Positions 1 to 22,000 of a stretch of 64,000 nucleotides of DNA are shown here, piece after piece (within the stretch, counting starts at the first letter, position 1; each line of letters begins with the position of its first letter). The stretch comes from Macrostomum lignano. Lineage: Eukaryota. The notes under the pieces are model-generated. The model was not told the origin of the DNA. It searched no databases and saw nothing but the letters and a program-made list of their open reading frames with translations. A program made the position numbers and the translations under genes. The stretch covers positions 1-64,000 of the forward strand of contig NIVC01001403.1 of assembly GCA_002269645.1 (NCBI GenBank), written 5' to 3'.

Positions 1-3000
1 CGGTTTACCTACCAGGCGATGCTGCGGTCGTCCCCAGAGCCCTCGCTACGCTGGTAGAGCTCTGCTCTGCCAAAACTACGAGCTCTGGTTGCCGGCGACA
101 TCAACGCCCACCACACTCACTGGGGCAGCACTGGCATTAATCAGAGAGGCGAAGACCTCCTAGCCTACGTTGCCTCTACGACCCTCGAGTTCTGCAACTC
201 TGGGTCCACCCCTACCTTTGACAACGGACGGTGGTCGGAGGTGATCGACGCTACGCTCGCAACGCCCAGACTCTACCAGAGTATTGGGCATGGCGGGTGC
301 TTCCAGTGTCCTCACTATCGGATCACAAGTTCATCTCCTTCAACCTAATGGCCCCGCGTAGCGCAACTCGTGTTATGTGGAGACGGAACGCCAGAAATAC
401 GGATTGGGAAACCTTCGGGCTCGCCCTGAAGGAATTCCATCGGTCTCCTGGCCAACCATCCACGATCACGTCGTGCCGAGAGGCGGATGAGTGCGCGACT
501 GTTTTGACAGAGACGCTAACGCCGCCTTTGAGGCGTCCTGCCCTTTAAAAGCCTATAAAGGGAAAAAATCGGCGCCGTGGTGGAATCCGAGCTTGGCAAC
601 CTCCGTCGCAGGGCTAAGAGACTCCACCGCAGAGCAACTAAAACTAAGAGCCCTGCAGACCAAACCACCTATCATGAAGCAATTCATGAGTTTAAAAGGC
701 AGGTTAGGAATGCAAAGGCTCAAAAATGGCGACAATACTGTGAGGAGCTAGAGGGCTCACGGCCCACCTCCAGAGTTGTGAAAGCGCTCACGCTGGACAA
801 AATGTCTAAGCTCTCCTCGGTCAAACGCACCGACGGTACGTCCACGGACAACCCAGGGGAAACGCTTGATGTAATGCTCACTGCGTTTTTCCCTAACGAG
901 CCAGCTAACCAGACCACTCCGGATCACTCGGAGGGAGGTCACGCGCTGGCTGCATCTATCATCACGGAGGACCGCATTGTGAGAGCGGCAAATTCCTTCA
1001 AGCCTTTCAAAGCCTCAGGACCCGACGGCATTGTACCGGCCCTTCTAAGAGAGGCGGTTAAATGCCCAGGCTTCCTGCGCAAACTTTGCAGCCTTCTTCG
1101 GGCATGCATCACGCTTGGTTATGTCCCGCAGGCATGGACCGAGGCAAAGGTGATCTTTATCCCTAAGCCAGGCCGCCCGGACTACCATTCTATCAAATCC
1201 TTCAGACCGATCAGCTTGACCTCCTCCCTGGTCAAGCTGATGGAGAGACTGGTGCTTTGGCGCCTTCTCTCTGTTGAGCTGAAGAACAAACCTCTCAGCA
1301 AGAACCAGCATGCTTTTCGGGCGGGTCGCTCCACTGAAAGCGCGCTGCACGTCCTGGTTGATAAACTCGAGAAGGCCGTGCTTGGTAGTGGCTTTGCTCT
1401 GGGGATCTTCCTGGACATCATTGGCGCCTTTGATAACGTCCTCTTTGAGGCGTTCCGAAGAGCTCTTTGTGAGAGGCTAACGCACTCACATCTCACCAGA
1501 TGGATCATGTACATGATCAGCCATCGCACGGCCACCGCCAGTCTGCTGGGCTACCAGAGGACGGTCCCCGTCTGCAAAGGTAGCCCGCAAGGTGGGGTGC
1601 TGTCTCCAGTTCTCTGGAATATGGTCATCGATGAGCTCCTCCGGGATGTTCGGCCTGACCCCATTCTGAAAGTTGGATATGCGGACGATGTCACCGCGGT
1701 GGCATCTGGTCCGTCCCCTGATACCCTCAGGGACCTTCTTCAGAACTTCATCTACGCTGCTGAGCAATGGGCGGACTGCTGTGGTTTAAGGCTCTCTGAG
1801 ACTAAGACCGCAGCGATCATGTTCACCAGCAGGACCAAGTGGCAGATTCGGCCGCTCACGCTTTACGGAAGGGAAATCCCCTTCTGCAAGCAGACTAAAT
1901 GTCTGGGTATTACCCTGGACCACAGGCTGAACTGGTCTCCCCACGTTCAAACAAAAGCCAAAAAGGCCTTCGCAGTCCTCGCGCAATTGCGCAGGGCTGT
2001 CGGCACCACCTGGGGGCTCACCCCCAAGCGCCTCTGGTGGATCTACACTGCAATGGTTAGGCCCGCTATCTCGTATGGCAGCCTGATCTGGGCTAGCGCC
2101 CTGCAGATAAAGACCTGTCTAGAGGCTCTCAGGAGAGCGCAAGGGCGCGCTTGTCGCACGATCATGAGCGCCCCTCCGTCTGCTCCCTACGATGGCCTCA
2201 ACGCCTTCCTCAACATTCCTCCGCTGGACATCTTTGTCCGCAGGGAAGCGGCTAAGACTGCCCGCCGTCTAGCTGATGCTGGCATTCGAATCCAGCCCCA
2301 TAGGGCCATGGCTAAGCGCAAGCTTCTGCCCCACGCTGACCTCTGCCTCAAGGACTTGAGAGACAGCGGCGGGCTCCACGTCCTATCTGACGGCGAACCC
2401 CGCACTCTCAACACCTCTTTCAGCGCTACAAGGTCACCATCCCCTCTAGGGATGCTGCCAATGACCACTGGAATTTCCAGGAGGTCCATTGCTACACGGA
2501 CGGATCCATCAAAGACGGTCGCGCCGGCTTTGGGGTCTGCATCATCATCAACGGCCGCGTAATTGCCACGCATGCCCAGCACACTGGTAGATTCTCCACA
2601 GTCTTCCAGAACGAAGTCCTTGCCATCAGCTCTTGCGCTGCAGAGCTGAACGCCAAGGTTACAAGAGGAAAGACTATTGTCATCCACTCCGACAGCCAAG
2701 CGGCCTTACAGGCCCTTTGCCACACCACAACGAACTCCCGGACAGTCGCCGACTGCGCCCGGCAGCTCAACCTCCTGGCCAGAAGCAATACTGTCAGGCT
2801 GAAGTGGATCCCAGGGCACGCAGGGTTTCCGGGGAACGAGCTGGCAGACACCCTCGCCAAGAGGGGCGGCTCTGGCTCTTTTTTGGCCCTGCCCCCCTGG
2901 TCCCTATGCCCTTGACAGTCATCAATCGTCAGATCGACGACTAGGCTGACTCCCTCCACAGGGACAGATGGGCGGGCACCCAAAACTGCCGGCAATCTTG

Positions 3001-3479
3001 TGCCGCGGTTCCTTGCCCGTCTCACAGGCTCAGAAACATCCTTCTGAACCAGAATCGGAAGGATATTCGAGCCCTTGTCATGACCCTTACCGGCCATGGC
3101 TACCTCGCCAGGCACTGCTTCCTCCGAGGCGACCTCGAGAGCGAAATTTGCCCCTTTTGCGAGTGCGACAATGAAGATGCTCAGCACTTTGTCTGTCACT
3201 GCCCCTTCTTTAACAGAGACCGGCTACGCTACCTCGGGCTGAACCCATCCATTGATGAGGTTTGCCAGCCCGACAGCATCCCACGGCTCATCCAGTTCCT
3301 TCGGGCGACTAGACGAGCCAGTTTTTTCCCAACGGAAGATCACGCTGCAGGACGGACCGGCGGACCACCCTGACCGGCCCCACGCCTCTGCCTGTCTGCG
3401 GGCCTTCAGGGGCTAGCGGAATGGGCGACCCTCGCCTCCCCGCTGTGTCTACGGACCACCCTGCAGCTAAGTCAAGTCA
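1..3479 (+). mobile_element. Non-LTR retrotransposon, LOA/R1-like clade (APE endonuclease, RT, RNase H, CCHC knuckle); 5' end outside window; several frameshifts
   Basis: GDINAHH..WGS / VIDATL endonuclease motifs at about 90-260. RT with GSPQGGVLSP and YADD (about 1678). RNase H CYTDGS..EVLAI..SDSQAA..WIPGHAG..GNELAD at about 2490-2865 in a shifted frame. [18 protein letters not shown] at about 3150. 3' tail ctgcagctaagtcaagtcag. Confidence 0.93.
577..2562 (+). CDS. Reverse transcriptase ORF segment of the LOA-like LINE (frameshifted out of the RNase H frame near 2420)
   Basis: 661-aa ORF with KASGPDGI, FRPISLTS, QHAFRAGRST, LDIIGAFDNV, PQGGVLSP, YADD and LGITLDHRLNW motifs. Confidence 0.9.
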   Translation: MVESELGNLRRRAKRLHRRATKTKSPADQTTYHEAIHEFKRQVRNAKAQKWRQYCEELEGSRPTSRVVKALTLDKMSKLSSVKRTDGTSTDNPGETLDVMLTAFFPNEPANQTTPDHSEGGHALAASIITEDRIVRAANSFKPFKASGPDGIVPALLREAVKCPGFLRKLCSLLRACITLGYVPQAWTEAKVIFIPKPGRPDYHSIKSFRPISLTSSLVKLMERLVLWRLLSVELKNKPLSKNQHAFRAGRSTESALHVLVDKLEKAVLGSGFALGIFLDIIGAFDNVLFEAFRRALCERLTHSHLTRWIMYMISHRTATASLLGYQRTVPVCKGSPQGGVLSPVLWNMVIDELLRDVRPDPILKVGYADDVTAVASGPSPDTLRDLLQNFIYAAEQWADCCGLRLSETKTAAIMFTSRTKWQIRPLTLYGREIPFCKQTKCLGITLDHRLNWSPHVQTKAKKAFAVLAQLRRAVGTTWGLTPKRLWWIYTAMVRPAISYGSLIWASALQIKTCLEALRRAQGRACRTIMSAPPSAPYDGLNAFLNIPPLDIFVRREAAKTARRLADAGIRIQPHRAMAKRKLLPHADLCLKDLRDSGGLHVLSDGEPRTLNTSFSATRSPSPLGMLPMTTGISRRSIATRTDPSKTVAPALGSASSSTAA

Positions 3480-4471
3480 GACGGATCCTCCAAAGACGGC
3501 TTATCTGGCTTTGGAGTCTGTATCCTTATCAATGGCCACGTGATTGCTACTCAGGCCCAACACACTGGCAGACTCTCCAGCGTCTTCCAGAACAAAGTCC
3601 TTGCCATCAGCTCCTGTGCAGCTGAGCTCCACTGCAGGGACTTCAAGGACAGAAGAATCTTCTTCCACTCTGACAGCCAGGCCGCTTTACAGGCCCTGTG
3701 TCACACCACTACGAACTCCCGAACAGTCCGCGACTGTTTCGGGCAGCTCAACAAGCTGGCTTGGAGGAACACTGTCCGACTTACATGAATCCCAGGACAC
3801 GCCGGCTTCAAAGGCAACGAGCTTGCGGATTCCTTCACTAAGGTGGGCTATTCCAGCTTGCCCCTTGGCCCCGTGCCCTGGCCCCCATCCTAGCCACACT
3901 CATTAATTGTCAGATTAACAACTGGGCAGACATACTGCACTTGCGCAGATGGGATGGTATCTCTAACTGTCGCCAATCTTGTACGGCAGTGCCCAATCCG
4001 TCCCTCAAGCTGCGGAGAATCCTTTTGAACCAAAATTGAAAAGATATCCACGCTCTCACTATGGCCTTCACAGGTCACAGTTGCTTTGCCAGGCACTGTT
4101 TCCTCTGAAGTGCCCGCCAGAATGAACTCTGCCCTTTCTGCAACCTTGAGAATGAAGATGCCAAGCACTTTGTCTGCTACTGCCCGGCTTTCAACCAAGA
4201 CCGGCTCAACCACCTTGGGCCCAACTTGTCCCTGGACAACGTTTGTTGGCCCGAGAACATCCCACGGCTCATCTGGTTCCTACAGGCCACCAAGCGAGCC
4301 TCCGTCTTCCCCATAGAAGACAATGCTGCAGACAGGATCAGCAGACCTCCCTGACCGGCCCTGCACACTAGCCTATGCAGGTCTTTCAGGGATTAGCAGA
4401 ATGGGCAACGCTCGCCTCCCCACTGCGTCTTTGGACTGCCCTGCAGCTAAGTCAAGTAAGTCAAGTCAAGT
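3480..4471 (+). mobile_element. Second, 5'-truncated and decayed LOA-like LINE copy (RNase H, zinc knuckle, 3' UTR)
   Basis: Starts at DGS of RNase H (acggatcc). SDSQAALQALCHTTTNSRTV is identical to copy 1 at protein level. CPFCNLENEDAKHFVCYC knuckle. Same 3' UTR and aagtc tail. Stops and frameshifts present. Confidence 0.9.
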
Positions 4472-4504
4472 GTATAGGAGAATTGCAAGTGCAACTGCAT
4501 ACAT

Positions 4505-4659
4505 GCGCAACCTTGGAATCACTCGGCCGTTTCTATTGGCAGCACACACATGTAAGTCGCTATTGGCTGAGAGAAGTCACATGATTACTATTCTGTCCAA
4601 TAGCAACTTACATGTGTGTGTTGCCAATAGAAATGGCTGGGTGAATCCCTAGGTTGCGC
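4505..4659. repeat. Imperfect inverted repeat (about 62-bp arms, 30-bp spacer); MITE-like or hairpin
   Basis: 4505-4566 gcgcaaccttggaatc...gtaagtcgctattgg is the reverse complement of 4597-4659 ccaatagcaacttac...cctaggttgcgc, with a few mismatches. Confidence 0.85.
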
Positions 4660-4793
4660 CCAAGCATGTGCAACTGTATATTTGTCATTCTTATAGTCTC
4701 TCATTTACAATGTGATGAAGCTGTAAATAGATTTTTCTATACTTTAAGCAGTTACAAAAAATGACTACACTTAGCTAGCTATATGTATTATTT

Positions 4794-5095
4794 ATGGGTG
4801 AGTGGCTGGGTAAAAGTGAATTAAGTGGGTGAGTGGCTGGGTGAAAGTGAATTAAGCGGGTATGGCTGGGTGAAAGTGAATTAAGTAGGGGAGTGGCTAG
4901 GTGAAAGTGAATTAAGTGGGTGAGTAGCTAGGTAAAAGTGAATTAAGTGGGTGTGGCTAGGTGAAGGTGAATTAAGTGGGTAAGTGGCTAGGTAAAAGTG
5001 AATTAAGTGGGTGGGTGACTGGGTGAAAGTGAATTAAATGGGTGAGTGGCTGGGTAAAAGTGAATTAAGTGGGTGAGTGACTAGGTGATTAAGCA
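4794..5095. repeat. 31-bp minisatellite (gggtgagtggctgggtaaaagtgaattaagt), about 9-10 copies
   Basis: Periodicity read directly. Confidence 0.9.
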
Positions 5096-5917
5096 GCAAT
5101 CTTTGCATAGTACATAGCTAAACTTACTGGAATAAAGCTGCATAAAGGGTCTTATCACAGTGTAGAATATGCCATCTAGAAACCATGTTTCTGTGTTGGC
5201 CAGGATTTCAAGCTGCTTATCCGTGGTAAAAAGCAGATGGCACTTCTGTGTTCTGGCGACATGGAGATCTGACTTACATGTAAGAAAGTTGGATGGAAGA
5301 GCCGCATCTTGCAGTTCAAATTTGAGATTTCTTGGATGCTGGGGCTGACTTCCAGCTCAAAATCTATTTGTGTTTCTAGCTTGCTGCTTAACAGTTGGAG
5401 GATTTATTCCTAAATCATCGCACAGAGAGTGGGCAATCAGAGCACCTTCAGCTATTTCTGCAGCTGGCTTGAATTGGCATTGCTTTGTCTCCAAGAAATT
5501 TTGAATGAGAATAACTATTTGCCAATTTTATCTTCATGTGCTAGCATTGTGTTTTTGTAATATATGAAACCTATTTTTTGTATGTTGTTCATTATTGCCT
5601 TGAAATCATTCTTAGTCTTATTCATTAGTTGCCTTAATATATATTTTTGTTTGTTTTCAATATAAAATCACTATTTTTCTTATCACTATTTTAGACACTT
5701 TAAAAAGTAAGTATAAATGAATCAGTAACTCATTTTAGTACTGTATGTTTGCTATTATTCTTTTGTTTGATGTAACTTTGTTTAAAATAGTCTGCCATAT
5801 TTATTAGAACTCATATATATATATATATATAGGTAGAAAATATACGGTAAATAAATCATCTTCCAATCCTGCATCTTCCAATCCTCCAAGACTTCCCTAA
5901 TTAGCCTAGCTAGACCC

Positions 5918-8390
5918 ATGAAAGCTAAAGACCTGACCTATTGGCAAACCCAACCCCCCAGCTCCCAACCCCTTGCAAAAGTTAACCAGACCCAATATAC
6001 AGAAGATTCATGGATTAATGAAGTGAGCCTTGGCCCTGAATCATCAAATGAACAGTATAAAGCCATCATTGATCTTATGAAAGAAAACCATGAAGCTTTT
6101 TCCTAGAATAAACTTGACATGGGCCTGACACACTTAGTAACCCATAAAATCGCCATCAAAGACCCCACCCCCATTAGAATCCCAGCTAGACATATCTCCC
6201 CGCACTTGCAAAAGCAAGTTGATGCCCAATTAGACGATATGTTAGCTAAAAACCTAATTAGACCCTGTTATTCAACTTACTCTACCCCCTAGTAATTGTC
6301 CACAAGGAAGATGGTTCCATTAGAATAGTTAGCGATTTCCGCATGCTCAACTCAAGAGTTAAGTATTACTCCTACCCCCTCCCCAACATCCAAGAGACCT
6401 TCTCCCACTTAACTAGTAGCCAATACTTTAGCAGTTTAGATCTTAATTCAGGATACTGGCAAGTCCCCATCAAAGAAGAAGACAAGCATAGAACCGCCTT
6501 CTCTACCCTAACTAGAGGCCAATTTGAATATCAAGTAATGGCCCAAAGACTTTCCAATGCCCTCGGAACCTTCCAATGTCTAATGAATTTAGTCCTATTA
6601 GGAATTCAACACAAGTACACCATGTTCTATATAGACGATATAATAACCTATTCCCAATCCTTTGCCAAATATTTAGATCACTTAAGAGAAGTGTTCAAGC
6701 GACTAATTGCCACAGGTCTAAAGCTGATACCCAAAAAGTGCAATCTTTTTCATCGCAAGTTAAAATATTTAGGACACGCGATTGGCCAACAAGGCATTCA
6801 AACAGACAAGACGAAAATTGAAGCTATCCAAACTTGGCCCCATCTCAAAGACGTAAATGAATTATGCAGTTTTCTTGGCCTATGCAATTATTATTACCGA
6901 TTTGTGAAGAATTATGCTGAAGTGGCTAATGATCATCCCCTATTTCAATTGACTTGAAAAGGAGTCCAGAATTTTTAATCTAAATGGAGCAAAGTGCATG
7001 ATGAAGCCTTTGAAGCCTTAAAGCAGCGAATGATGTCTACCAAAGTGTTAGCCTACCCAAAATATGTCAAAGATGAAAATGTGAAGATGGTGCTCGACAC
7101 AGATGCCAGTGATGACAGGATTGGTGCATGTCTTGGCCAAATCCAAAGTGATGGCATAGAGCAACCAATAGCCTATTTTAGTAGAGCAATGAAGGAATCA
7201 GAGAAGCGATACCCTGGAAAGAATTATTAGCCCTTGTCGATGCTATGAGGCATTTCATATTTTATCTGATCGGCAAGAAATTCTTAGCCCAAACTGACCA
7301 CAAAGCAATTATTTGGCTCATGAGACAGATAGAAACAACTGGAATCTTAGGTAGATGGATAGAGCGCCTAAATTAATTCAGGTTCAACATTGAACACAGA
7401 AGTAGTGCAAAGCATTCCAATGCCAATGGATTGTTGCAACGACCAGCTGAGACAGCTGAAGCCCCTGAAGTATTCCCTAAAGCAGCACCTGAACTTGATA
7501 AAGCAACTCCTGAAGTTTCTGAAGTCCCTGAAGCAGCCCCTGAGCCTGCTGAAGCAATCTTTGAAGCCCCTGAAGCATCTGAATAATTTCTGAGAACCCT
7601 GAGCCAATCCTTGAGAAAATTGAGAAGTAACCCCTGTTCCCCTGAGAAGTAAAAAAGCTCTTGCTGAAACTAAGGACAGCCCCATGTCTTAGTCACCTGA
7701 AGCTCTGACAGAAAGTGAGACCCAGCCTGAATGTCCCCAATCTAGGCCAAAGCTAAATGTCTTATGTAGAGAAGTAGAAGAAAGAGAAGAAGAAGAGACA
7801 GGAAAGTGTGAAAAGTTGCTAACAGATTATCTTCCCAGCCCCCTGAAGAAAGAACAGATTCAAGAAGCCCAATCTGCTGACCCCATCATTAGAGCTCTAC
7901 TAGAAGCCAAGAATCAGAAACTGAGCCAATTTCCCAAAACACCAGATGTGCCAGAAAAGATAAGTAGAAATTTCGAAGCCATGAGAATTGACAATAATTT
8001 ACTGACCATATCTGAAGATGGAAAGAACAAAGTCATTTTGCCCCTATCCCTAGACAAAGCAGTCTTTTTGACCTACACTATAGCCCCCTCGCAGGATATC
8101 TAGGAAGAGATAAGACAATCCAAAGAATAAGAGACAGATTTTGGTGACCTGGACTGAGCACCTCAGTTGAGCAGTTAATTGCTGAGTGTATCCCTTGCCT
8201 TGAAAGTAAGAAAGGTCACTTTGTGCAAGCCCCTATTTAATCATTCCCCATTGGTGAAGCTTTCAACCATCTGCATATAGACATTATTGGCCCAATTTCT
8301 AAAGAAAGCAAGCGAGGTCACAAATACATTTTAACAGTTTCACATATGTTTTAACAGTTGTGGATAGCACTACTTGATACCCCTTCTCTT
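5918..8390 (+). mobile_element. Degenerate Ty3/Gypsy pol (RT, RNase H, integrase N-terminus and start of core); gag/protease and LTRs not recognised
   Basis: FSSLDLNSGYWQV, HRTAF, YIDDII, FLGLCNYY (RT). LDTDASDDRIGACL and TDHK (RNase H). H(Y)SPLAG(Y)LG..FW*PG..CIPC and HIDIIGP..HKYILTV (integrase). Many stops and frameshifts. Confidence 0.92.
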
Positions 8391-8882
8391 TTTTTTAGAA
8401 AGCAAAGCATTGAATGAGGAAATTCCTCAACCCCTACCTCCCTCTCCTGCCTGCTGGATCCCAAGCCCGCGCACACCCTCCCCTACAATCTAAGGTGCCC
8501 AACCCAAGCCAAACACAGATACAACTGTCATCTAAAGCGCTTAATAACAGCCCTCAGTCTGTTGCGCAACCTCCAATTTTAATCTTCCTACCCTTCTTTT
8601 GCCATCCCCAATTGCACAATAGACCCCAAATTTTACACAAAGAACTCCTCACGGGCAATGCCAATGTACAAGACCCCCTAGAAAAAATTGACCCAAAATG
8701 GAACTAGAGCCTAAAGAAGACGAAAAATAGAATGAGTCACAAAAATGAGGAATCTAAAAAAATCCAGGAACAAAGGGAATGATGAATAAACACTTCAACT
8801 GAGATTGCACAACTAAAAAACTTGCTCCCCACTGTTATCTGTCTCCCACAACAGCTATCTTGAATTCTTTGCATCATTCCCA

Positions 8883-9772
8883 ATGGCTAGTGAAGATGAG
8901 TTAAAAAGGCTGCAAGATAAGTTAAGCCTCAGTCCTAGTGAAGGAGAACTATTTGACAGTGATACTGAGAACAAGCTTCCAGTCCCTAAATGCCAACAGA
9001 CCCAGCCCAAACCCACCAGCACTAAGCCACAACCATTATCCGTAGTTGTGTGCCCTCCATCCTCATTGGTGTCTGGCAATCGAGTCCATCTAATGAAACA
9101 GCAGGCTGAAGCCCGGATCCCTGTCTCCCCTGCCATAGCTCAACGCCAACCCAAAGGCAGTAAACCCACTATTGCGCTTCCGCTAAGCGAAATTCCAAAA
9201 TCAAGCACTAATCATCACCTAGGACCACGCCAGTCCACACCTTTGGCTTTGCCATATTGCAACCCTGATTGCCAGCCAAGAGATCCCCCATCAGGCAACT
9301 GCTACCACCCCCTATGGCTACACTGCTGCAGCATCAAGCTATTGCAAGGTCAGAATCCCTGATGGCTGAAGTTCCGCCTTTGATGCATGGAGTGGCTAAA
9401 TCAAATTTGATCAAAGACATTAGGAGCAAATACAACAAGCTTATCTCGAAAATGACTGAGCCAAGTTGCAGCAAGTACCGCCACCTAGTTGCTAATCTGC
9501 AGCGCTATCTAGTGCACGTAGGGCACTTTCGCCTTGACAGCTATCCCTTCCCAGTGCGAGAAGACTTGCACGCCACTATTCAGGCCTTACAATGAATTTC
9601 AATTGCCCACACTGTTACAGCCTAGCAGCGCGTGGTTGCATACTCGCTGCTCGAGTTAAACCACAGATGGGCCAATCAGGCCAACGTTTGCACCGAGATG
9701 CAGTGGCTTGGTCTAGAGTGCAGCTGGCCAGCTGCTGACCGGCTCCCGACGGAGTTGGTCCGCTACCTGTGA
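8883..9772 (+). pseudogene. Unrecognised ORF A downstream of the Gypsy pol (P/S/Q-rich N-terminus plus globular C-terminal domain), disrupted
   Basis: ORFs 8883-9362 and 9269-9595 join by a frameshift. The frame continues past TGA and TAG to 9772. Shares YLxxxxHxRLD and ExxWLxxxxxWPxxxxLP with ORF B. Confidence 0.55.
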
Positions 9773-10156
9773 ATTGACTCTGAAGTTTAATTTTTCTTTT
9801 TCAAACTGTACTACTAGTATTATTGCATGATGAAAAATACTCACTTATAAATTGTATTCCTATTTTTCATTAAGGAAGGCCAGATGTGCCAGCATTGTTT
9901 TTTTATAGTATTATGAAACCTATTTTTTGTATGTTGTTATGTATTGTTCGAAACTTGTTCCACATAAAAATCCTAGCAATGCTTAGTAACAGTGCGAACC
10001 AATGAGCGAGCCCACTAAACCCCCTCTCGGGCAAACACGAAGATGCGGTCCAGTTTCTCAGATATGTAATCAAGCCCCCTGCAGCTCCATAGACCCATCA
10101 ATCACATCCCGCCTAGCTAAGAGCAATCATTCACAAGCAATTATCAAGTATAAGCC

Positions 10157-11073
10157 ATGGAAGATGACCATTTAGACAACTTTATTAAAGATTTGTTAGG
10201 ACTAGATGAAACCATGGAAAATCTAGAGCCAGCCGCAGATCAAGCCGCCAAGCAAGCTGCCGAGCAAGCAGCTCCGGCAGAGCAACCACCAGCAGCTTTG
10301 GCAGAGCGACAGTCAGCAGCCTTGGCAGGACAGCAGTCAGTCGCCAGGTCAACTCAGCAGTCAGCAGCCGTGGCTCTTGATCTCAGTGAGGCTCCACTAT
10401 GCAACCCGACTAGGCCACAAGCCGTGGCGGGAACCTCAAAGAGGCCGTTGTCAGATGAGCCACCAGGATAGGAGACAGTGCCGGTGAAACGGCCCAGGCA
10501 AAGGCCCCAGTGAAATTGATTGTCATCAAAATGTGCGCTGCCGAAGGATGGCACACAGTGCAACTGGCAGAACTGCCAGCAGGCCAACCACCGTGATGCC
10601 AAGCTTCACCGCAGCGACATCAGCCGTCAGCACCGAGTCAGCTACCTGCCCTGCAGCATCAGCCATCACTGCCACACTAGTCCACGCCACAGCCACAGCC
10701 GCCCCCGGCGCCGCAGCAGCCAACAAGGTCTCACCGAGATGTGGTGCAGCAGCTGATGGCCATGCATGGCACCCTGTTGGAAAGAGTGATGCACGGCATT
10801 CGCACGTACTTGATGCGTATTGCCCACCTAAGACTCGATCAAGTGCTGCCCCAGCGAGCATACATCTGGCCGGGACTTCAACAGCTGCGCACCCACTATC
10901 AGAGTGGCAAATTGTTCGCTATTCTGCAGTACGTGGCTGACCAAGTCTGAGGCAACATTGATGCCAGCTGAGAGCCTTTCCAGCGTCAACTGGTAAATAT
11001 TGAGCTGAGGTGGCTCTTCACACAGATAGGCTGGCCAGAATTCTGAAACCTTCCCAGAAACTGCAATTTCTAA
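10157..11073 (+). pseudogene. Unrecognised ORF B, paralogue of ORF A, disrupted
   Basis: A/Q/E/T-rich N-terminus (10157-10740, frameshifted). C-terminal frame 10741-11073 reads YLMRIAHLRLD...ELRWLFTQIGWPEF*NLP through three TGA stops. Confidence 0.55.
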
Positions 11074-14000
11074 ATGGTAATATACGAAATTAACTGACAT
11101 GTTTTTATTTTAGTGCCTATATTGTTGTGCTGCTTTCATAGTTTGTCTTTTTATAAATTCTGCATACTATTAACTATTTTGAATATTGCATTGCTACAAT
11201 TATATTGCTTCCATTTCACCTTTTATATACTATTATTAGTAGTTATAGTTGCTGTATATTTTTGACTATTGCTTTGATACATTGCTTCTATAAAATCTTT
11301 TTTCACATGCCATTACCAGTAGTATTTGCTGTTCACTTTGCTACCTTTCTTCTATAACTCACATTTTTTTAACTTTGTTGTCTGCATATTACTAGCATTT
11401 TTCTTCATATTTGTGCTACTCATTGCCTTGTTTATTACAAATTTATGTGTGAATACAACTTATTTTGCCTGACAATTATTGCCTTTACTTTACTTATGCA
11501 TTTTGAGCAATTTACTCACGCCAAAAATTTCATATTTATGTTTGTAAAATTTTTGTTTTTTGTAACTTGCTGTCAGGGAAAGCAGCTGAAACAGTGCATT
11601 AATAATAGTATGATACTGTACGATAGTTCTAATAGTTACTCATTTTTCTTAGAAAACTCTAGTTCAAATCCGCGCTAAAAATGAATCTTTTGTTTAAATG
11701 TTGTAAGTTGCAAAAATATTTTTCACAATTATTATTTGTTTGAAATGATGAGAGGCTTTGGTATAAATAAAAGCCCCAAGTAGGCCAAGAAGACAACTTG
11801 CTTGTTTGTATGCTTTAGCAGCAAAGCTTTCAATAGCTAAAACTTAATAGGAAAATTGTTCAAGTGACTTATTCATTTCTATAGTAAAAACCCCTATATT
11901 GGGAGAGTTCAAGACCACTAAAAGTGAGAATTCGCCTCAAGGCAGTAATTATAAATTCGCCTCAATGCAGAAGAATCGCCTCATAGCGAGAGAAAACCAC
12001 CTCAGGGCAGGAAAAATATAAAGCTATGACCCTCTGATCTTGGGAATGCTAGGACTGAGAGAATAATATCTTTAGAAGGGTATAGGAATAGGATAAATAG
12101 TGCCTAAAGACCACTCAGGCCAGAAAGTACAATAGAAGTATAGACACTACCAATAAAAGTACATACACTACCAATAGAAGTACAGACGCTACCAATAGAA
12201 GTATATGCGCTATTAGTAAAAGGCAAGTATTAACCAGCAATATTAACAAGAAGGAATAAGCCCTGTTATAACTTTGGTGGCATTGTAGAATTATTTATAA
12301 GGACAGAAGTAAACCCTAGGACATGTCAAATAATGAAAAATTTGATTTTGGAAGTGGGTCAAATTTGAATATTTACTTTAAAAAACAATATTTTTCAATG
12401 CTTTCAATACTGACAATAGGCATTCTACTTGAAATCTAAATCTTGGACTTCTTAGTCTAAATGCCCATCATCATCATGGAGGCTTAGTAAGCCTATAGGC
12501 CTAGAATTTTAAACAATGAAAAATTTGATTTCAAAGTGGGTCAAATTCAAAAAGGCCTACAAATGTCAAATATTTGAAAAACAATGTTTTTTTTAATAGG
12601 CCTACTTTTATTTTTTTTTTTTGAATTTGAATATCCCATATGTGGGTATAATGTACTAATATATAATAATAATATTATCAAAAAAATATTAATACTAGGC
12701 CCTAAAAGTTTTTTTTATAATAAACTAAAAAATCAATAAAACATAGGCCTAGCAATAACATAATTTTTTGGCTTTAGGCCCAATTGTTAATTAAGGCTAG
12801 GGATCCATGGCCCAATTGCCTATACCATACCCTTAGCCTTAGGCTACAACTCTAAGGGTCAGACAAGATCTCAATCTAAATAGGCCTAGGCCTAATCTCA
12901 ATTTTCAAGATCTTGGCACTTTTCTCAATCTCAATCTAATATCTAAGTTTTAAAATCTCGAAAAAATGCAAGATTTGTGACAACGTGACTAGGCCTATAC
13001 TCTACCGCCCGCCCCCACCACCACCCCACCTGGATCTGTTACACCACTGAGTCTGACTAAGCCCCTACTAAATTAAAACAGTAATTCCAGGACCCAGGCC
13101 TAACCGAATGTATTGTGCTTGTACGTCGTAGTTGTAGGCCTGACTTACTTACCATTACCAATACAAGACTGACCAGCATTGTAAACTGTGCATCGCATGA
13201 CGCATCGCCTGTTATTGCCATTGGCAAAGCAGGTTGTCATGTTTAACAGTTAACTGGTCAATCAACTACCTAAGATAGTTAGCCAAAAATACAAAGCAGT
13301 ATAACTCGTCCGTCCGTCTATTTGTCGGCGCTACCTGTATGGCTGTATTGGGTTACGCGTTTTTTATATAAACAACACGAAAACAGTCAAAAGTACTTTT
13401 CTGGCACTTTTACGGTTTACAACCATGTTTGAAACAAAATTTACATATTTTTAAATTGCAAAGATTAATAAAAGTAACTTTACTTAAAAATGTTAGTGAA
13501 AATTGCGTTTTTAAGTGTTGCATTAATTAAAAAATAAGCCAGACAAATCTTGTTTTAGCTTCACTAGCAATATTCGGAAAGTAAGGTCAAGCAATTTTTT
13601 AACGAATTGTCGAACTTCAATTTCGTTTACAAATTCAACTGCAATGCAGTAATTTCGTCTGATTTAAATCTTTTTGCCCTAAGCTTTATTCTCAAACATT
13701 TCCAAACACTTGGTTTATTTTTGGATAGTTATAGATTTAATTTACAATCCATTCTTTAAAATGTATCATTGAGTGTTTTGTAAAATTCAAGCTACCTGCC
13801 TACATCAACTACAAATTACACCAGTGCTGTATCAGGCTTTGGATTTAGAGACTTACGGAGAAAAAATTGTACTGATTTACATACCACAAAAAATAAGCAC
13901 ACATTGTATTAGTAAAAACTAAAGGCAAATAAAGGCAAGGCAAGGGCAGGCAATTATAAGGCAATAAGAAGAATATTTGCACCTCTAGCATTTGTGATTG

Positions 14001-14595
14001 TGAAACAAACCAATAAAGATATTTGGCCTTAAGTTGCGATAGGATTTATAAAATTATTTAATGCATATGGTATCATTTTACAGCCTAAAATGCTTTCATG
14101 CTAGATAAGACACTACCATATAAGCGTGGTCCAATGCAATATGCATAATTGCAGAACTTTCAGGATCAAATTTTTTTTTTCATTGGAAGTTAATTTTTTT
14201 TAAAAAAAAGAAAATTTCACTACTACAGTTCGCGCATGCACAATAATACTTGAATTTCTTCTCACTAAGGACACTTTGCACGAGCCTATTGTTCATGCTT
14301 ATTCACTAAATTATGAATGATATACCTCAAAATGGGTTTGAGTGACACTTTAAAATATTTTTATTAGTAAAAGCTTTGTTCAATAGTATAGCCGCATGGC
14401 ACTTAATATTTCCTCTAAAAGCTTCAGTTTTCTTACGTTACTTTCTGCTTTAAGAGCATGCAATTAGCCTTTATTGCACATTTTAACTTCCTGTTCTATC
14501 CAAAAACTTTCGCTATGTTAAGCATGCTGCATATAATAATCGTTTTTTGTTCATAACAGCGAACAACTGAGTAAGTGCCGAGAGCGAAGGTTCCC

Positions 14596-15444
14596 ATGTC
14601 GTCAAGATCCGGTCACCGGCACTCCCCAGCCTGCAGCCCAGAAGTGCTTCTGGCCCTCAAATCGCAGTCGCGCAGTCTCTCGCTCAACCGGAAGCGTCTG
14701 CTCGAAGCTCCACCGGAAGCCAGCAGGCTGACCTTCCTGGCCCGCCTGGACCTGTCCTGCAACCAGCTCCGCGACCTGCCGCTGGTCCTGGAAAGCCTCG
14801 AGCTGCTGCAGCACCTCAACCTGTCAGCCAATCAGTTCTCCGACCTTCCCCTCGTGCTGGCGTCCTTCTCCCGGCTGCAGTACCTCAACTTGTTCAACAA
14901 CCGACTCTGCCGCCTGGAACCGGCCGTGCTGGGCTGCCTGACGAGCCTGCGGACCCTCAATCTGAACTCGAACTCGCTCGCCTCGCTGCCCGCCGAGATT
15001 TGTCGCCTACAGCGGCTCACAACTTTGGCGGCGAATCGAAATCAGCTGACCAGCCTCCCCGTGGAGCTGTGCGCACTCGAGCACCTGCAAGTCCTGCACC
15101 TGGCCTACAATCAGCTCACCGCCTTGCCGCTGGAGTTCGGCTGCCTGGCATCGCTGCGAGTTCTGCAGCTGCAGCGAAACTGCCTGACTGAACTGCCGGA
15201 ATCTGCGGCCCGCCTGCACCACCTGGAGTATCTGGACGTCGCCTGCAACCAGCTGCAACTGCTGCCGGCCAGGTTTGGCGAGCTCAACCTCAGAGAGTTT
15301 TATTACGAGAGAAACCCGCTAATCCGGCGGGACCCAGTGCACAGCACCCAAGAGCAGGAGGCGCTCGGCCTCAAGGAGCTCTGCGCTCGGGCTGTCATGC
15401 AGGAGCTGCGAAGTCGCGCCTCACCTTTGCGCGATCAACTCAAG
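14596..15444 (+). CDS. LRRC69: Leucine-rich repeat protein LRRC69-like, exon 1
   Basis: ATG at 14596. About 8 LxxLxLxxNxL repeats, then LKELCARAV. Donor AAG|GTTGGC at 15445, phase 0. Confidence 0.85.
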
Positions 15445-15491
15445 GTTGGCGTTTGGGTCAATTCTTCACTTGAGTTTTATCAACATCTCTG

Positions 15492-16810: not shown

Positions 16811-17060
16811 GATAACGTTACACGCTACATGTTTGTCGTAGCCTTAATAACACGTACTCTGCACCCTTGGAGACATCACAACCGTTACCACAATCACACT
16901 TTTAAACTAAAATTCTTAATAATAAAATTTACCGCTTCCCGCGACGTAACTTTGTGACGTTTACGCGACGTTGCCGCGACGAAGTGTGTTACTAGGGAAC
17001 AGGCTCATTAATCCACAAAACCATTTAAAACAAGCTCCCAAAATCCCGGCTCTCCCCCAG

Positions 17061-17354
17061 GCTTACCCGCAGCTCCGGGAGCAGCTGTCCCAGTGCAGTC
17101 GCTGCGCGGTGTGCGGCGGCGCCTTCCTCAACACTTGGCTGGAGTGCGTCCGCTTCGAGCCGTTCAGCCCGTCCGGTCGGATGAGCAAAGCCGGCGAAGA
17201 TGTCGGCGACGGAGAGTTCGGAGGCAGCGACGACGGTGAGCAGCGGCAGCAGCAGCAGCAGCAGCCAATTCGCTGGCTCCCCATCCGGGCTCTGGTTTGC
17301 AGCTACAAGTGCTTCAATGCTCAGTCTGAGTTCTATGGACTCGCTTTTCTGTGA
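17061..17354 (+). CDS. LRRC69: LRRC69-like, exon 2 (Cys-rich C-terminus)
   Basis: Acceptor ctcccccag|GCT, phase 0. CAVCGGAFLNTWLECVRF...LVCSYKCF matches the LRRC69 C-terminus as I recall it. Stop TGA at 17352-17354. Confidence 0.85.
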   Translation, partial: AYPQLREQLSQCSRCAVCGGAFLNTWLECVRFEPFSPSGRMSKAGEDVGDGEFGGSDDGEQRQQQQQQPIRWLPIRALVCSYKCFNAQSEFYGLAFL

Positions 17355-19081: not shown

Positions 19082-22000
19082 CACAGACAGACACACAGAC
19101 AGACAGACACACAGACACACAGACAGACAGACAGACAGACAGACACACAGACAGACAGACAGACAGACAGACAGACCTTGGTGCCATAGACAGTCAGCAG
19201 TGTCGCAGTGGAGCCCACAAGGTTGTGCGGCAGGAGGAAGCGCAGGCAGACGGCCAGAGAGCCCAGGACCATGGTGTTGTACACGCTGATGCCAATCTGC
19301 TTGCTGTCGTTCAGAGCCTCGATGTGCACCGAGCGAGTTTCCCAAGCGAAGAAAATTCCAAACAGAAGCACCACGCCTGGAATTGCCGGGGCTCGGGGGG
19401 GGGGGAGTTATCAGAGTTTCTGGAAAGTCTCTGAAAGCCAGTTTCAGACACGAGTTGCTGGGCTGCCTGATGCCTCATGGGGGATTGCTGAGATGCCTGA
19501 TGCCTCATGGGGGATTGCTGAGATGCCTGATGCCTCATGGGGGATTGCTGAGATGCCTGATGCCTCATGGGGGATTGCTGAGATGCCTGATGCCTCATGG
19601 GGGGATTGCTGAGATGCCATGATGACTCATGGGGGGAATTGCTGAGATGCCATGGCTCCACATGGGGGATAGCAAAGATGCCTGGCTCACAGGGGGAATT
19701 GCTGAGATGCCATGATGACTCATTGGGGGAATTGCTGAGACAATTGATGCCTCATGAGGGGATTGCTGAGATGCCATGGCCCATGGCTCACAGGGGGGAA
19801 TTGCTGAGATAATTGATGCCTCATGAGGGGATTGCTGAGATGCCATGGCTCACAGGGGGGAATTGCTGAGATGCCATATGGCTCACAGGGGGGAATTGCG
19901 GAGACGCCATGGTGACTGATGGGGGAATTTCTGAGACGCCATGATGACTCATTGGGGGAATTGCTGAGATTTCAAGCGCACGTGCACCTACACCAACTTA
20001 TCCTACCTTTAATTCCGATGAGAATGCTAACCCAGATGCTGAAGTGTTCCGAGTGGCATTCCACTACTGTGTGCGAGTATACCACGCCTTTGACTCTGTC
20101 ATCGTCCTTTGGAGCAGAGGCGTTCGCGGCAAGCTGGGTATATTTTGTTTAGCTATATAATTACTTCAGAGAGCTGCGATCATGGTTACCTCAGAGCCAG
20201 CGTCGAGTATGACTTCCTTGAGGGGATCCAGGAGCATCCAGGCTGTCAGGATGATCAGGTCCATCAGCAGTAGAAGAGCAACGGGAAGCATCAAATGCCA
20301 GTCCTTGATCACCTGGCCAATGGAGCATCATTAAATGTGAATTGTTATGCTGTCCCCCTCACACTCACCCATCATTTTTTCATCCTAACCTATCATCATT
20401 TTGTCATCCTCAGTGATCAGTTTTTCATCCTCAGTCATCAGTTTGTCATCCTCACTCATAATCAGTTTGTCATCCTCAGTCATCAGTTTGTCATCCTCAG
20501 TCATCAGTTTGTCATCCTCAGTCATCAGCTTGTCAACCTCACTCATAATCAGTTTGTCATCCTCAGTCATCAGTTTGTCATCCTCAGTCATCAGTTTGTC
20601 ATCCTCAGTCATCAGTTTGTCATCCTCAGTCATCAGTTTGTCATCCTCAGTCATCAGTTTGTCAACCTCAGTCATCAGTTTGTCATCCTTAGTCATCAGT
20701 TTGTCATCCTCAGTCATCAGTTTGTCATCCTCAGTCATCAGTTTGTCATCCTCAGTCATGAGTTTGTCATCCTCAGTCATCAGTTTGTCAACCTCACTCT
20801 CTAACCAGGCCATCTGCGCCCGAGTTCAGATAAAACTGCAGCCCCAGCGCACCACAGATTTGCTCCTCCTGTTGGTGAACACCGCGTGCACTCGCCAGGT
20901 TTTGGCGAACATCGCGCCGAACGCGGCAGAGTAGCCGAGCGCCAGACAGTAGGCGATGGAGCCGCACTGGGCGACCCGGCTGCTTCCATCCGAGGAACTC
21001 GGTAGCCGAGCACGCAGCCCAGCGCGATGCACAGGTTCACGTTTGGCGAGCTCATTTTGATCAGCTTGACGTGGCGATAGCGGAGGCTCACACAGACGGA
21101 GGCGGCGGTCAGGCCGATGCCGACAGAGGCCAAGCCGACGACGGAGTGGGCCGCCGTGACAGACACGGTCTTCAGCAGCTGCACCTTCACCGCCGAGTCC
21201 ACTGGGGGCGAATTGCCTGCAATCATTTTCAGACAAAACTCGTCTTAACAGAAATGTGGAGCTGAGTGGGTTTGGAATTGAGGGGAATTTGGAATTGAGA
21301 GGAATGTGGAGTTGAGGGGAATGTAGAGTTGAGGGGAATATAAAGTTGAAGGGGAATGTGGAGTTAAGGGGAATGTGGAGTTGAGGGGAATATAGAGTTG
21401 AGGGGAATGTGGAGTTGAAGGGGAATGTGGAGTTGAAGGGGAATGTGGAGTTGAAGGGGAATGTGGAGTTAAGGGGAATGTGGAGTTGAGGGGAATGTAG
21501 AGTTGAGGGGAATGTAGAGTTGAAGGGGAATGTGGAGTTAAGGGGAATGTGGAGTTGAGGGGAATGTAGAGTTGAGGGGAATGTAAAGTTGAGGGGAATG
21601 TAGAGTTGAGGGGAATGTAAAGTTGAGAGGAATGTAGAGTTGAGGGGAATGTAGAGTTGAGGGGAATGTAAAGTTGAGGGGAATGTGGAGTTGAAGGGGA
21701 ATGTGGAGTTGAAAGGGGAATGTGGAGTTGAAGGGGAATGTAGAGTTGAGGGGAATGTGGAGTTGAGGGGAATGTGGAGTTGAAGGGGAATGTGGAGTTG
21801 AAGGGGAATGTGGAGTTGAAGGGGAATGTAGAGTTGAGGGGAATGTGGAGTTGAAGGGGAATGTGGAGTTGAAGGGGAATGTAGAGTTGAGGGGAATGTA
21901 GAGTTGAGGGGAATGTAGAGTTGAAGGGGAATGTGGAGTTGAGGGGAATGTGAAGTTGAGGGGAATGTAGAGTTGAGGGGAATGTGGAGTTGAAGGGGAA

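Follow-up and report, generated by a model that had tools for sequence, protein, structure and literature searches.

A decayed pair of paralogous genes with an unclassified, predicted helical domain behind a Ty3/Gypsy pol fragment of Macrostomum lignano

Introduction

Do two related reading frames that follow a broken Ty3/Gypsy pol gene in the flatworm Macrostomum lignano belong to the retrotransposon, and what might their products have done for it? Extra open reading frames (ORFs) are a route by which LTR retrotransposons come to new abilities such as cell entry, RNA export and host manipulation, and most of them are found only by reading the region behind pol. The locus considered here lies in a 64,000-nucleotide stretch of contig NIVC01001403.1 (assembly GCA_002269645.1), which we call the window and whose positions we use throughout. 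An initial annotation had picked out a tandem pair of ORFs, here A and B, as possible accessory genes of a large LTR retrotransposon. The window runs from two LINE pieces (1-4460) through a 155-bp inverted repeat, a minisatellite and a T-rich stretch to the Gypsy pol, A and B, and then through an AT-rich region and a leucine-rich repeat (LRR) gene into mostly minisatellite-filled sequence. The features of the locus are these:

5500..5830, plus strand: T-rich stretch upstream of pol, with the second copy of a 62-bp motif (5536-5597)
5857..5885, no strand: 15-bp stretch duplicated in tandem where pol breaks off at its 5′ end, perhaps the scar of a rearrangement
5885..8392, plus strand: decayed Ty3/Gypsy pol fragment (Pfam RVT_1, RT_RNaseH, Integrase_H2C2)
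8393..8582, plus strand: perhaps what is left of the C-terminal tail of pol past an internal deletion (YNLR at 8484; weak)
8583..8882, plus strand: A-rich spacer, 39% A, with no recognised LTR and no purine run of at least 11
8883..9772, plus strand: ORF A, about 296 codons, with an acidic, then P/S/T/Q-rich N-terminal half followed by the core
9461..9769, plus strand: shared domain, copy A; AlphaFold model all helix (pLDDT 64), with a cullin-repeat alignment
9773..10001, plus strand: T-rich intergenic spacer between A and B, 229 bp, 41% T, containing the 62-bp motif (9884-9946)
10002..11073, plus strand: ORF B, start ATG at 10002 or 10157; decayed, with the shared domain last
10762..11067, plus strand: shared domain, copy B; AlphaFold model of four helices (pLDDT 71), with a cullin-repeat alignment
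11074..11560, plus strand: T-rich tail behind ORF B, 48% T, resembling a 3′ untranslated region

Results

A and B are decayed genes with a common C-terminal domain

ORF A is open in its N-terminal frame from 8883 to 9359 and is interrupted by one frameshift, which falls somewhere within 9269-9359, and by two internal stops (9593 and 9623, one of them TAG). ORF B encodes, in order, an acidic helix, an Ala/Gln-rich linker, a basic motif resembling a nuclear localisation signal (NLS; 10439-10498), an Ala/Thr-rich linker and the shared domain; it contains four internal stops (10469, 10948, 10969 and 11044) and two frameshifts when read from the ATG at 10157, or three from the ATG at 10002. The initial annotation had described both frames as readable through stops, and the stops are there, but these frameshifts must be bridged as well. 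The domain common to A and B is C-terminal and about 100 residues long, colinear in the two copies and free of introns, and both ORFs terminate directly behind it. Across the pair, ATG starts, GC-rich bodies and T-rich spacers alternate in a gene-like manner; one other plus-strand frame across the B core is as open as the frame chosen here.

The two cores are homologous at the protein level. Smith-Waterman alignment of A with B gives a score of 64 over 83 aligned columns with 21 identities, which is attained by none of 5000 residue shuffles (mean 26.8, maximum 57) and none of 1000 codon shuffles (maximum 49), and composition-adjusted BLASTP gives an E-value of 6e-05. Among the 36 frame pairs compared, this pair alone scores 64 and the second best scores 43; among 2130 six-frame windows spanning the entire stretch, the best non-self windows of each core lie inside the other core. 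The two motifs that had first suggested a paralogous pair are present on the plus strand where they had been placed, at near-equal spacings of 52 and 54 residues, and the paralogy itself withstands the shuffled controls. DNA-level similarity is not significant (score 45 against a shuffle maximum of 55) and third codon positions of the core alignment match at only 25%, so the duplication must be old. We rejected identity by codon position (39/47/25% in the cores) as independent proof of selection, since long shuffled alignments give a like pattern (39/51/30%). The N-terminal halves are of low complexity, as had been noted for both, but share no homology, their alignment scores being attained by 745, 114 and 103 of 1000 shuffles. 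A third copy of the domain, sought at 5090-5535 and 8393-8882 with frameshifts allowed, was not found (scores of 27 and 29 against null means of 29). A and B are a real, ancient gene duplication of an unclassified, predicted helical domain, since decayed, on the pol strand.

Chromodomains have a β-rich fold; neither ORF has a Pfam match and the predicted models are all helix, in keeping with the early view that no chromodomain is present. The accompanying view, that A and B do not resemble env, also holds: in a hydropathy scan, which is not a dedicated predictor, the maximum 19-residue value is at most 1.11 in six of six A/B segments, none of which contains a transmembrane segment. Glycine, as in an N-myristoylation motif, is absent from position 2 at all candidate starts (8883, 10002 and 10157). 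The bipartite NLS-like pattern of B, which spans a stop and was noticed after the fact, recurs in 6 of 10,000 shuffles. SEGEL, at 8937 in ORF A, recurs in 2 of 10,000 under a pattern widened after SEGEL had been seen; we rejected it as an ARS2-binding motif, given as [ED][ED]GE[ILV] in the accessible text of PMC9402713, because serine occupies position 1. Of 206 YAG sites, 13 are acceptor-like, so that such sites are common; those close to the A and B starts do not fit the trans-splice motif in the available part of PMC8629364.

Searches return only the locus itself

A and B match a single database protein, UniRef A0A1I8IGM7 (P0003) of Macrostomum lignano, which is a mis-joined gene model of this locus or of a near-identical copy. 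It fuses LINE sequence (171-4303) with parts of both A and B, with the LRR gene (starting at 14623) and with the antisense strand of the receptor region described below, and one of its A/B parts uses a frame other than that read here. When A was searched among 1,835,955,588 protein representatives, the one search that covered near-length proteins, and for A alone, the single match was this model. Word searches spanning longer proteins only (274-2000 residues for A, 210-2000 for B) yielded one match among 149 candidates for A and one among 32 for B, each again the locus's own model.

Family databases agree. Pfam returns nothing for P0001 or P0002, and the trimmed A domain reaches a best E-value of 0.14; NCBIfam gives three rows at E 0.037-0.11, far below its cut-off; PHROGs gives 0 matches for A or B; PDB sequence searches give best E-values of 0.12, none and 0.61, none of them credible; and Atlas gives no usable match for the stop-free stretch of B, for which the recognition score is low (1592). 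With three protein searches returning only its own gene model, the domain deserves the description of an unrecognised family that it had been given. Three short DNA probes are absent from five supplementary files of PMC12801592, with long alignment rows searched to 400 characters, and these ORFs are not described in the literature that was searched, which lay outside subscription journals and repeat databases.

The domain is predicted to be a helical bundle

AlphaFold predicts both domains as all-helical bundles, with a pLDDT of 71 for B (two of five models near 70) and 64 for A; the input was a two-sequence alignment common to A and B, with X at the breaks, so the models are not independent. 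Foldseek returned nothing from the PDB at E ≤0.001 for either model and no match among viral models for B, the one model compared with them, and its 266 candidates for A, when re-examined, yielded ferritin-like bundles at Z of at most 6.7. Structure prediction, which the initial annotation had suggested as a check, in this way gives helical bundles with no significant Foldseek match to a known family.

In an exhaustive structural alignment against 48,161 chains, the first cullin repeat of CUL3 ranks first for both models, with Z 7.6, rmsd 3.0 and 97 aligned residues for B and Z 8.2, rmsd 3.2 and 98 aligned residues for A, values within the noise that the tool states for helical bundles (Z up to about 13). 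The alignments pair residues 54-156 of the A model and 17-118 of the B model with CUL3 residues 25-147/151. Runner-up folds score 7.5 for B, an unrelated fold tied with CUL3, and 7.2 for A. Judged by title and residue range, cullin chains make up 5 of 50 and 6 of 50 of the matches listed; CUL2 and CUL4B repeats occur in both lists and CUL5 in that of A only. Identity between the models and cullin repeats is 7-12%, and cullins are absent from the Pfam matches and from PDB sequence matches up to E = 10, for which a two-sequence profile is a weak query. Full cullins carry cullin-homology and Nedd8 domains C-terminal of the repeats, according to the accessible text of PMC2785787; both are absent here, where each ORF ends right behind the 100-residue domain. 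The cullin-repeat resemblance of the models, lying within helical-bundle noise, may serve as a lead and permits no assignment. With moderate confidence, each product is predicted to be a disordered, low-complexity N-terminal half joined to a compact helical bundle of about 100 residues.

The pol fragment is broken at both ends

The pol fragment comprises, in order, a pre-RT region, reverse transcriptase (RT), RNase H, a linker, the integrase zinc-binding domain and the start of the integrase core, and its best PDB matches are Ty3 RT. The closest relative of its RT is the M. lignano protein BOX15_Mlig011037g1 (P0004; 1358 aa, standing for 10 database sequences), 77% identical to it in RT. The fragment covers P0004 residues 166-970 and is cut at both ends: P0004 residues 1-165 have no match anywhere in the window, about 390 C-terminal pol residues, protease and gag are missing from this copy, and the three plus-strand frames of 5101-5522, upstream of RT, give no credible Pfam match. 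Its scored parts contain seven stops and four frameshifts (the linker, 7451-7807, was left unscored). The proposal that A and B lie directly downstream of a Gypsy pol is correct as to strand and order; pol itself, however, is incomplete and ends in the integrase core at 8392, so that what A and B follow is a break in pol.

YNLR/YNFR-type motifs can stand at the end of Gypsy pol proteins. The YNLR at 8484, which 18 of 5000 shuffles also contain, recalls a YNFR in P0004 that lies 30 residues from the C-terminus; a YN[LF]R-type motif occurs in only 1 of 21 pol relatives, a literature search for it came back empty, and the P0004 tail shows no significant similarity to 8393-8882 (258 to 952 of 2000 shuffles attain the score). 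These observations give a weak hint that an internal deletion may have removed the integrase core and that A may begin about 300 bp past the natural end of pol. A 97-codon open plus-strand frame (8414-8704), overlapping the possible tail, continues through stops to 8860 with a charged stretch; it has no credible Pfam match, and its Atlas matches are at chance level.

Evidence on whether A and B belong to the element

A, B and pol lie on the same strand, and ORF A starts 490 bp from the pol break. Lesions per kb amount to 5.1 in pol (n=11), 3.4 in A (n=3) and 6.6 in B (n=6), all small counts, while long open frames persist nearby in the host LRR exon (316 codons) and the LINE RT (667 codons). 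Nearby host genes are split by introns, unlike the A and B domains. The two copies of the 62-bp motif, one in the A/B spacer and one 5′ of pol, are 87% identical (E 1e-14), so that A/B-type DNA flanks the pol fragment on both sides, an arrangement that fits an interrupted gene array equally well. Third-position GC is higher in the cores (164/275, 0.60) than in pol (285/702, 0.41; p 1e-7) and nearer to that of the LINE and the host exon; the N-terminal halves (114/256) show no difference from pol.

No LTR pair was found in the window: 4461-5885 and 8393-14560 have only the 62-bp repeat in common. As for a polypurine tract, the single purine run of at least 11 in 8393-14500 lies at 14202. Decay or deletion could have erased both LTRs and tract. 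No relative of A or B from another locus appears in the protein sets, though P0004 represents 10 sequences; the missing relatives are a weak point, because A and B are too diverged to find each other in so large a search, and A/B-like genes of other loci may be unannotated or too diverged. On this circumstantial evidence, we put the probability that A and B belong to the Ty3/Gypsy element at about 0.55. Accessory genes of an LTR retrotransposon, as first proposed, are the likeliest reading; a complete element around them, with pol cut and no LTR pair, is not what the window holds.

Other features of the window

Positions 1-4460 hold a non-LTR retrotransposon that encodes endonuclease, RT (in the 667-codon open frame) and RNase H and has a Cys/His-rich end; behind it lies a second LINE 3′ piece, 72% identical over 988 bp. 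Similar 61-bp tails end both. At 4505-4659 lies a 155-bp imperfect inverted repeat, 81% self-complementary and resembling a miniature inverted-repeat element, and all five sub-threshold microRNA matches from Rfam fall on this hairpin. No tRNA genes were found. Positions 5090-5520 are of moderate GC and CpG-poor, and the 62-bp motif lies in the T-rich tail behind them; they may be a third decayed gene unit, with no similarity to A or B. Downstream of B, 11930-12550 contains short repeated motifs, including a tandem repeat of 21 bp at 12130-12203 and a direct repeat of 38 bp with copies at 12328-12365 and 12511-12547, which could mark the end of a decayed element; no partner was found upstream of pol.

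An intact host gene (14575-15447 and 17058-17351) encodes leucine-rich repeats and a Cys-containing C-terminal exon, and its product presumably resembles LRRC58/LRRC69-type proteins. On the minus strand, 19177-20315 contains exons of a class C G-protein-coupled receptor (Pfam 7tm_3) with minisatellite-filled introns. Dozens of distinct minisatellite arrays with periods of 2-64 bp occupy 15482-63645, and several related units recur kilobases apart.

Discussion

Because pol is broken at both ends, its adjacency to A and B could stem from rearrangement, and the two ORFs could instead be a decayed, lineage-specific host gene pair, or retrocopies, in a tandem or operon-like cluster at which the pol fragment arrived by insertion and deletion or by repair capture. 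We give this explanation a real but modest share of belief. It would account for core third-position GC nearer to host-like sequence than to pol, for the cuts at both ends of pol with a 15-bp duplication at one of them, and for T-rich stretches and the 62-bp motif on both sides, which the arrival of pol inside a gene array would produce; M. lignano is, moreover, rich in non-conserved genes and short-spacer operons, according to the available part of PMC8629364. It sits poorly with the lack of a second family member among predicted proteins, with A and B having decayed about as much as pol, with their lack of introns and of a third domain copy upstream of pol even when frameshifts are allowed, and with the mismatch of the nearest acceptor-like sites to the published trans-splice motif (PMC8629364).

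The missing ends of pol are also what one would see if another mobile element or endogenous virus, such as a capture-prone DNA transposon, had carried A and B as cargo and also taken up pol, making the 5.1-11.6 kb block a composite. The block does lie among repeats (two LINE pieces, the 155-bp inverted repeat and minisatellites), and codon composition differs between pol and the cores; yet in the frames scanned neither a transposase nor a helicase nor a viral gene was recognised, the block is without terminal repeats on its flanks and the B model matches no viral fold, so that we consider such an origin unlikely. Very improbable, in our judgement, is that the similarity of A and B arose by chance and neither stretch was ever a gene. 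Identity is low (21/83), the E-value of 6e-05 applies to a pair picked by eye, long shuffled alignments reproduce the codon-position pattern, the Atlas score of the stop-free B stretch is low and another plus-strand frame over the B core is equally open; against this, no residue or codon shuffle attains the observed score, the two models are similar helical bundles with a common top match, and starts, bodies and spacers alternate as in genes.

We therefore favour, at somewhat better than even odds, an element-borne pair: A and B would be two anciently duplicated, intronless genes in the 3′ region of an M. lignano Ty3/Gypsy element, whose copy here would be dead and rearranged, with gag, protease, most of integrase and the LTRs missing or unrecognisable. 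The repeated layout of start codon, disordered arm, helical bundle and T-rich spacer suggests two separately translated, soluble binding proteins. A tentative picture is that these products would be non-enzymatic, would act on host control, probably in the nucleus, and would each have a subgenomic RNA of its own, with the T-rich spacers as boundaries; the nuclear host-control role is suggested by the architecture, the NLS-like motif of B and the precedent of the Burro elements discussed below. With no membrane segment, roles like those of env and sORF2/FAST-like proteins are excluded, and if the genes are element-borne, the most probable role would be regulation of, or defence against, nuclear host control, not packaging or cell entry.

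CACUL1 is a cullin-domain protein. It associates with CUL3-KEAP1 and stabilises the substrate of that complex, according to the accessible text of PMC4523873. By a decidedly speculative extension of the structural models, which we think improbable, A and B would be stand-alone mimics of the first cullin repeat on a disordered nuclear arm, carried by a lineage of flatworm Ty3/Gypsy elements as decoys that titrate cullin adaptors and so shield element proteins or RNA from host ubiquitin-ligase control; no account of a cullin mimic in a retrotransposon turned up in the literature searches, and the resemblance, if true, would point to a new counter-defence strategy. Among the first cullin repeats of CUL2, CUL3, CUL4B and CUL5, the one in CUL3 is the top structural neighbour of both predicted models. 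Identity is only 7-12%, Z is in the noise range, Foldseek and sequence searches give no support, and the cullin-homology and Nedd8 domains are missing from A and B.

Membrane fusion glycoproteins with a signal peptide and a transmembrane anchor are the products of env/ORF3. Insect Ty3/Gypsy elements carry env/ORF3 and sORF2 (FAST-like) as accessory ORFs in pol orientation, sometimes downstream of it, in the available text of bioRxiv 10.1101/2025.03.14.642691; the sORF2/FAST-like proteins described there are membrane proteins, whereas A and B have neither a transmembrane segment nor a glycine after the start methionine. In plant Retand elements a long region separates pol from the 3′ LTR, and its ORFs, whose function is unknown, have been proposed to be regulatory (PMC11963269, accessible part); those ORFs are antisense and contain a TRP28 domain, whereas A and B are on the sense strand and have no Pfam match.

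The giant Ty3/Gypsy Burro elements of planarians have accessory ORFs, several of which contain ubiquitination or apoptosis domains (MATH, BIR, BCL2-like and SUMO-like) in the accessible text of PMC6431247. Like the present locus, Burro is a flatworm Gypsy with extra coding capacity and accessory ORFs. Its extras, however, are recognisable domains, most of them within a single polyprotein some 5000 residues long, and homology to env is among them (PMC6431247); A and B, by contrast, are short paralogues encoded separately behind pol, and neither matches Pfam or resembles env. Within M. lignano itself, P0004 is colinear with the window pol through RNase H and the start of integrase and, unlike it, is intact through integrase. 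The available text on M. lignano LTR elements catalogues 137 families by RT, with consensus sequences for six only, and the word 'ORF' has no occurrence in its main text (PMC12801592). Accessory ORFs are familiar in Ty3/Gypsy elements, and the orphan A/B pair with its predicted helical domain, seen in a single broken copy, is most likely a further example; in a regeneration model with LTR elements catalogued by RT, a duplicated soluble domain without relatives among the protein representatives searched would constitute a new accessory family.
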